This document shows positions 36,823 through 38,088 of a stretch of 64,000 bases of DNA, one piece after another. Origin of the DNA: Dictyostelium discoideum (Eukaryota); contig CM000154.2 of the NCBI GenBank assembly GCA_000004695.1, positions 2,592,001-2,656,000 of the forward strand, given 5' to 3'. Under the pieces are notes generated by a model that saw only the letters and a list, made by a program, of their open reading frames with translations, had not been told where the DNA came from and ran no database searches. Each line of letters starts with the position of its first letter. The stretch's first letter is position 1. A program made the translations under genes and the position numbers.

Positions 36823-37057
36823 TAGAATTGAAGAAGGTGAAAGTATTGTTGAAAATTTAAATATTTTATCATTAGATTTATCAAATAATCCATTATTGGC
36901 AACTGATGCATTTGAACCATTAAAAATTATTATGACTTGTAATACAATTATTCACTTAAATTTAAAGAATATAGGTTTATCAAATAAAGGTGTTATGGTA
37001 TGTATAATAATTTTTAATAATTTAATAATTTTTATTTTAATAAATTAAATATTAATT

Positions 37058-37152
<95 letters not shown>

Positions 37153-37736
37153 CCCCCTTAAAAAAATTTTTTAAAAAATTCCCAAATTTTAAAATTTTTA
37201 AATTTGGAAAAAAAAAATTTAAAAAACCGGGGGCCAAATTTTTTTTAAAAAAATTAAAAATTTTTTTGGGAAAATTTAAACCCTTTTTTTTTAAAAAACC
37301 CCTTTTCCCCCTTCCGGGGGGTTTATTTTTTTGAAAAATTTTTTCCAAAAAAAAAACCCCAAAAAATTTTAAATTTTTTAAAAAATTTTTCCCCAAAAAA
37401 GGGTTCCCCCCTTTTTTTCAAGGGTTTAAAAAAAAAATTTTTTTTTTTAAAAAACCCCCAAAAGGGGGGGAAAAAACCCCAANNNNNNNNNNNNNNNNNN
37501 NNNNNNNNNNNNNNNNNNNNNNNNNNNNNNNNNNNNNNNNNNNNNNNNNNNNNNNNNNNNNNNNNNNNNNNNNNNNNNNNNNTTTAAAATTTTTTTGCCC
37601 TTTGAAAAAGTTGAATCCCCTCTTTTAAATTTAAAGGGTTTGGATTATTTTTTAAAGGGGAAGGCTTTAAAAAAACCTTTAAATTTAAGGGAAAAATAAT
37701 AATTTTTTTTAAAGGGGGGAAATTCCCTTAAAAACC

Positions 37737-37774
<38 letters not shown>

Positions 37775-38010
37775 TAAAAATTAAAAAAGGGAAAAGATTT
37801 TTTAAAAATTTAAAATTTTTTCCCTTGATTTTTCCAAAAAACCCCTTTTGGCCCCTTAAGCCTTTTGACCCCTTAAAAATTTTTTTGCCTTTTAAACCAA
37901 TTTTCCCCTTAAATTTAAAAAAATAGGGTTTTCCAAAAAAAGGGGTAAGGGAAGGGAAAAAAATTTTTAAAAATTTAAAAATTTTTTTTTTAAAAAATAA
38001 AAAATAAAGG

Positions 38011-38088
<78 letters not shown>

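Follow-up and report, generated by a model that had tools for sequence, protein, structure and literature searches.

We present an analysis of a stretch of the Dictyostelium discoideum AX4 reference, 64 kb in length and referred to here as the window, in which the interval 37134-38087 is an artifact of sequencing and assembly without any biological feature. The explanation that accounts for the whole of it, and to which we assign a probability of about 0.92, is a false gap in the Sanger-era reference, where the overlap of two contigs was left unmerged and is blurred beyond an intronic poly-T tract. Very probably the actual locus consists of 36630-37133 joined straight to 38088 and onward, with a single unbroken poly-T of ~74-75 nt, and the 954 bases in excess (blurred read tails, placeholder N's and a second poly-T) should be removed from the reference. 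The evidence for this reading comprises a two-sided pseudo-duplication, preservation of sequence length, substitution errors drawn from neighboring bases, onset of the errors at the poly-T, matching contig ends, and a gene structure that is restored when the interval is taken out.

The window is AT-rich, with ~12-36% GC per kb, and contains short GT..AG introns and many runs of A or T. Two of its open reading frames (ORFs) exactly match annotated AX4 proteins, namely DDB_G0289285 (6434-7534) and cupC (20450-22759, minus strand). Against this background the segment 37001-38000 has an unusual run-length composition. Its mean run length is 3.0-4.6, compared to 1.3-1.6 in the coding flanks (35001-36750 and 38251-38750), runs of a single base make up 6-22% of all runs compared to 62-70% in the flanks, and the mean length of G/C runs is 2.5-3.7 (maximum 7) compared to 1.1-1.3. 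An earlier note on this DNA, made from the letters alone, had described such G/C runs as alien to the genome, and indeed 21 of the 73 runs of at least four G or C in the window are confined to 1.2% of its length. A scan of run lengths over the whole window flags essentially this interval and, in addition, a short stretch near 56.2 kb.

The interval and its surroundings can be divided into seven consecutive parts, all described here on the forward strand. The first part, 36630-37059, is genuine sequence with normal run-length statistics that runs from the end of one exon through an intron with a T32 tract and the exon 36826-36997 into the following intron. After it comes the genuine intronic poly-T (37060-37133), called as T74 in the left contig, which is the pivot of the artifact: the sequence is good to its left and blurred from its right edge. 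The third part, 37134-37482, is the blurred tail of the left contig, a degraded copy of 38088-38427 of the same length. Next comes a placeholder scaffold gap of exactly 100 N (37483-37582), in agreement with the earlier note, which had placed an N gap inside the stretch; the aligned contig ends give the true gap a negative size, that is, an overlap of ~850 nt. The fifth part, 37583-38012, forms the start of the right contig and is blurred, reproducing 36630-37059 in degraded form at the same length; it includes a T30 that is the copy of the T32 tract. The sixth part, 38013-38087, gives the same poly-T once more, as a T75 in the calls of the right contig, and is redundant with 37060-37133; from 38088 onward the sequence is clean again. 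The last part, 38088-38427, is the second genuine parent, consisting of the final 19 nt of the intron and, from 38107, the start of a leucine-rich repeat (LRR) exon with normal run-length statistics, an open frame and a match to Pfam LRR_6. Each contig therefore has one clean half and one degraded half, and the switch between the two occurs exactly at the poly-T. No other homopolymer in the window is as long as T74/T75; the next is an A60.

Direct alignment without collapsing of runs reveals the relationship between copies and parents. The segment 37583-38094 is colinear with 36630-37139 over 408 matches, 95 mismatches and 16 gap columns (78.6% identity), and 37134-37476 is colinear with 38088-38427 at 72% identity with the poly-T counted in. 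When the poly-T is left out, the alignment to the right of the gap scores 414 compared to 71.5 +/- 29 for random segments of the window (z = 11.8), and the alignment to the left of the gap scores 212 compared to 56.8 +/- 23 (z = 6.6). When the two alignments are combined, 36630-37476 is colinear over its full length with 37583-38427, with the positions shifted by 953-954 nt. The left contig thus ends in sequence that matches the beginning of the right contig, and both reach the N run, which is the pattern of a false gap.

The lengths of the copies are conserved within 1-2%, at 342 nt compared to 339 nt in the parent to the left of the gap and 434 nt compared to 426 nt to the right. The 22 indels that separate the copies from their parents are all of a single base except for one of 2 nt, and each segment has 92-107 substitutions but just 8-14 indels. 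The earlier note had interpreted the stretch 37040-38050 as a stretched, homopolymer-inflated duplicate of 36640-37010, and this description holds in part. The parentage is right to the right of the gap, where the parent is 36630-37059, and wrong to the left of it, where the parent is 38088-38427; an artifact does occupy most of the proposed interval, but its true limits are 37134-38087, and the poly-T at 37060-37133 is genuine. The two strings quoted as an example do exist, gcatttgaaaaagttgaattacc at 36645-36667 and gccctttgaaaaagttgaatcccc at 37597-37620, but the preserved lengths contradict inflation. The degradation is a length-preserving blur, in which runs grow only by overwriting adjacent isolated bases. 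Because length is preserved, direct alignment of the uncollapsed sequences succeeded, whereas the check proposed in the note, which was to collapse the runs and re-align, proved non-specific: collapsed AT-rich sequence is of low complexity and scores 63-75 all over the window.

The errors depend strongly on sequence context. In 100 of the 107 mismatches in the left segment and 89 of the 92 in the right segment (93-97%), the base called is the one that truly belongs one position away (-1 or +1). Recovery is 90-91% for bases that lie in runs of two or more, whereas for isolated bases it is 31% (left) and 50% (right). Calls of the -1 and the +1 neighbor are about equally frequent, which means that the blur is symmetric and that the read direction cannot be deduced from an asymmetry of the errors. 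We modeled the blur by applying a Gaussian kernel (sigma 1.25-2 nt) to the parent sequence, with the C signal weighted by a factor of two, and calling the strongest base at each position. Identity to the blurred parent was 0.858 in the left segment (0.664 for the unblurred parent) and 0.829 in the right segment (0.741 unblurred), while 200 random segments blurred in the same way gave identities of 0.48 and 0.47, and none exceeded 0.58. The best parameters differ between the two segments, and swapping them lowers the identities to 0.795 and 0.716. This simple model leaves 14-17% of the bases unexplained; a plain majority filter, which was also tried, explained less than the Gaussian blur with weighted C.

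In their preserved length, their neighbor-base errors and their fit to the blur model, the base calls look like the sum of copies of one sequence shifted by a few bases. The blur starts at 37134, directly after T74, and at 38012, directly to the left of T75, and the flanks beyond these points are normal. It is strong already within the first 50 nt past the tract and does not become worse over more than 400 nt: identity along the left segment runs 0.69, 0.64, 0.74, 0.67 and 0.82, and the far end of the right segment reaches 0.88. The attribution of the stretch to failing read ends in the earlier note is therefore borne out, given context-dependent errors, bad segments that adjoin the gap and start at the poly-T, and contig ends that match each other.

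The artifact lies within a gene that encodes a FERM domain and LRRs of the ribonuclease-inhibitor type. Our model of this gene spans 33515-39367 on the plus strand and encodes 1489 aa in five exons (33515-36217, 36309-36736, 36826-36997, 38107-38862 and 38957-39367) with GT..AG boundaries, an intact frame, and Pfam matches to FERM_N, FERM_M and LRR_6. As written in the reference, the intron that contains the artifact is 1109 nt long and includes N's; deletion of 37134-38087 (954 nt) leaves 36998-37133 joined to 38088-38106, a GT..AG intron of 155 nt. A search with the LRR exon against 1.84 billion representative proteins yielded five relatives of the full-length type (P0009, P0011, P0016, P0017 and P0040) with 47-70% identity to the model. 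None of the five has a gap over the exon junction at residues 1101/1102 (...NKGVM|PLVTIIEKY...), and since nothing intervenes there in any of them, no coding sequence appears to be missing from the gap. The suspicion voiced in the earlier note, that the gene structure across the stretch is unreliable, was justified for the reference as written, and removal of the artifact restores both the 155-nt intron and the conserved junction.

The exact 1489-aa model is absent from a collection of 15 billion proteins, though neighboring AX4 proteins are present in it, and the public annotation of this locus may have been built differently or may be distorted by the artifact. The ORFs 38443-38916, 38984-39367 and 36788-37048, which lie between the two T tracts and to the right of the poly-T, likewise had no exact match in the sequence collection, and protein searches with a word index returned distant relatives only, with none of the species' own proteins among them. 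No single-exon gene was found within 10 kb of the locus. Three ORFs arise from the artifact itself, as the earlier note had anticipated in calling any ORF in this stretch meaningless: one of 114 aa on the minus strand (37052-37396), composed of blurred sequence and poly-A, one of 92 aa on the plus strand (37056-37334), and one of 205 aa on the minus strand (37728-38345). All three are spurious, and their translations are of low complexity and rich in Lys and Phe.

Independent sequence is available for one side of the artifact. Two Illumina contigs, L001 and L002 (SRR26869268 and SRR26869267), match 34363-36809 at 99.4-99.6% identity and carry the 139-aa ORF at 36321-36740. Their match extends up to 36809 and consequently supports the clean copy of the sequence that had been quoted as genuine in the earlier note. 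Both contigs stop within 31 T's of the T32 tract, short of T74. Independent reads backing the sequence as written had been named as evidence that would overturn the artifact, and we found none; the Illumina contigs that could be reached match the clean copy. In the intron that follows 36736, a comparison of L001 positions 2376-2441 with 36741-36809 of the window shows one 'tta' unit missing and 'ctcta' in place of 'ctct' before T32. These differences could be either strain differences or further small errors of the reference beside homopolymers.

The AX4 genome was sequenced by the Sanger shotgun approach. The plasmid origin of the data is supported elsewhere in the window by a short vector-like remnant: GCTCGGTACCC at 52245-52255, the first bases after the gap at 52145-52244, matches the pUC18/19 polylinker at 11 of 11 positions as far as the SmaI cut, where 0.01 such matches would be expected by chance; judging from this match, it is untrimmed cloning-vector sequence at a contig end. 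Given such data, the artifact could have arisen as follows. Reads entering from the left would be clean up to and through the T run. Past the tract, the sequenced molecules would differ in the number of T's, as a result of either polymerase slippage in the sequencing reaction or length variation among plasmid clones, and the downstream trace would be a sum of copies of the true sequence with offsets of a few bases between them. If the base caller assumes that peaks are evenly spaced, it would then pick whichever base dominates locally at each position, and the outcome would be sequence of the right length in which isolated bases are replaced by their neighbors and G/C peaks are smeared into runs. 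An equivalent event would have taken place from the right side, most likely on a reverse-strand read. We infer that the blur stems from slippage and that the right-hand read is in reverse orientation, and likewise infer the exact length of the tract, which was called as T74 in one contig and T75 in the other.

According to this scheme, each contig would end in a few hundred blurred bases that copy the good sequence of the other contig. With an identity of just 72-79%, the ~850 nt overlap would have been missed by the assembler and the ends left unmerged, and the scaffolder would have placed the two contigs next to each other with a conventional gap of 100 N. Several of the ingredients have been described in other settings. 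In Sanger traces of plasmids with A60-A108, the sequence 5' to the tract is clean and that on the 3' side is noisy, and in plasmids poly(A)/poly(T) tracts are of variable length (PMC11695563). Slippage stutter at homopolymers is a recognized artifact of chromatograms (PMC10643650).

The closest competitor of this scheme retains both the artifact and the false gap, and attributes the blur to an ordinary loss of electrophoretic resolution or a weak signal at the ends of reads, so that the poly-T did nothing more than block the end alignment by the assembler. The output does resemble base calling at low resolution, the blur is symmetric and well modeled by a simple Gaussian kernel, and the idea agrees with the failing read end of the earlier note. 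However, resolution loss would be expected to worsen steadily along the read, whereas identity does not drop with distance from the tract, and in both contigs the change from good to bad sequence is abrupt and falls exactly at the edge of the poly-T. An onset this sharp, with no progressive decay after it, fits a sudden loss of register better than a gradual loss of resolution, and we regard the latter as unlikely, while giving it more weight than any of the other alternatives. The run-rich appearance of the sequence, which led to its description as inflated, could also suggest a flow-based platform (454 or Ion Torrent) and true inflation through miscalled homopolymer lengths. Errors of such platforms are indels in run length and do not turn an isolated base into its neighbor, whereas here the length is kept within 1-2% and 93-97% of the differences are substitutions to a neighboring base; in addition, the pUC polylinker remnant at another contig end suggests plasmid Sanger reads. 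We consider this origin very improbable.

It remains to weigh a biological origin, in which the sequence is genuine as written and the intron holds a tandem duplication with a period of ~953 bp. A colinear direct repeat with a fixed offset is present, as such a duplication demands. However, half of each copy would have to be rewritten by an unknown process that keeps the length and overwrites isolated bases with their neighbors, and divergence of this kind, which consists almost solely of isolated bases erased in favor of adjacent ones, is not mutation-like. It also introduces G/C runs of a kind seldom found in the rest of the window, and it ruins the duplicated exon. Where one copy is good the other is bad, with the change-over exactly at the poly-T, each bad half adjoins the N gap, and the orthologues have nothing extra at the junction. 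We therefore judge a genuine duplication to be the least probable of the alternatives, with hardly any chance of being correct. In the preferred reading, a false gap with blurred contig ends, the sole biological item that we hold to be genuine is the unbroken intronic poly-T of ~74-75 nt, longer than any other homopolymer in the 64 kb.

The window contains four N runs, each exactly 100 long (3780-3879, 27712-27811, 37483-37582 and 52145-52244). At the first of these, the 1379 nt that run up to the gap (2401-3779) and those that begin 2 nt beyond it (3882-5260) share 99.6% identity; the left contig stops in a poly-A (A33) that has the length A54 in the right copy. A further match links 2005-2303 with 5253-5551 at 99.3% identity. 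A 444-aa ORF in the repeat at this gap (2114-3448) is annotated at numerous AX4 loci, a tRNA-Arg(TCT) gene is located at 1624-1696 on the minus strand, and the repeat looks like a tRNA-associated retroelement. On the basis of the matching ends, the gap at 3780-3879 is probably a second false gap, although two adjacent copies of the element could also produce this arrangement. The gap at 27712-27811 cuts two minus-strand ORFs (25615-27828 and 27707-28714) and hence lies inside coding sequence; the colinear similarity between its flanks is only weak, and the contig ends there were not seen to match.

The stretch near 56.2 kb flagged by the run-length scan is intergenic (56180-56360) and run-rich like the artifact, for example in ggggccggggccc, with runs of A and C and a fraction of singleton runs down to 0.18. 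It does not adjoin a gap. A scan of the window for a parent of 56175-56375 found none, in a setting where a positive control, a 201-nt piece of known blurred sequence, ranked its true parent only third and short A-rich segments are poorly discriminated. The stretch may be another low-quality segment or a genuine A-rich spacer.

Several other repeats are present in the window. A long internally repetitive tract at 46356-47147 would encode poly-Q/H, poly-T or poly-N depending on the frame, and an inverted related copy of it with 76-83% identity lies ~3 kb away at 49574-50181, the pair having a GC skew of -0.75 and +0.68. Dispersed direct repeats with 81-88% identity are found at 39947-40460 and 41446-41941, at 20444-20802 and 24280-24637, and at 10242-10462 and 18882-19102. 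The pair 20444-20802 and 24280-24637 begins within the 3' end of the cupC ORF and may reflect the cup gene family.

The practical consequence for the locus is that deletion of 37134-38087 closes a gap in the reference and reduces an apparent intron of 1109 nt with N's to one of 155 nt in a conserved FERM and LRR gene. Until this is done, repeat calls and composition anomalies within the interval are meaningless, and read mapping, primer design and gene models that extend across it are misled. The combination of features described here, namely preserved length, substitution by neighboring bases, a blur that starts at a long homopolymer, and contigs whose good and bad halves complement each other at a gap of fixed size, could serve as a usable screen for false gaps that escape ordinary overlap detection in other AT-rich assemblies of the Sanger era.

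The artifact can be compared with three known kinds of error. It is similar to the unreadable Sanger sequence past long mononucleotide tracts in being clean before the tract and degraded after it, and T74-75 is within the range of lengths reported to give noisy traces (PMC11695563, PMC10643650). The difference is that such tails are normally removed by quality trimming, whereas in this case they survive in a reference chromosome's consensus, and on both sides of the tract. It also resembles the false gaps of draft scaffolds, in that the sequence at which the left contig ends is matched by the beginning of the right contig on the other side of a fixed placeholder of 100 N. The difference is that the overlap here is just 72-79% identical, since each contig contributes a low-quality half, and standard overlap detection or gap closing by self-alignment would miss it. 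Finally, the artifact shares an excess of long runs with the homopolymer errors of pyrosequencing and semiconductor sequencing, but those errors are indels inside runs, whereas in the present case the length is kept and isolated bases are substituted.
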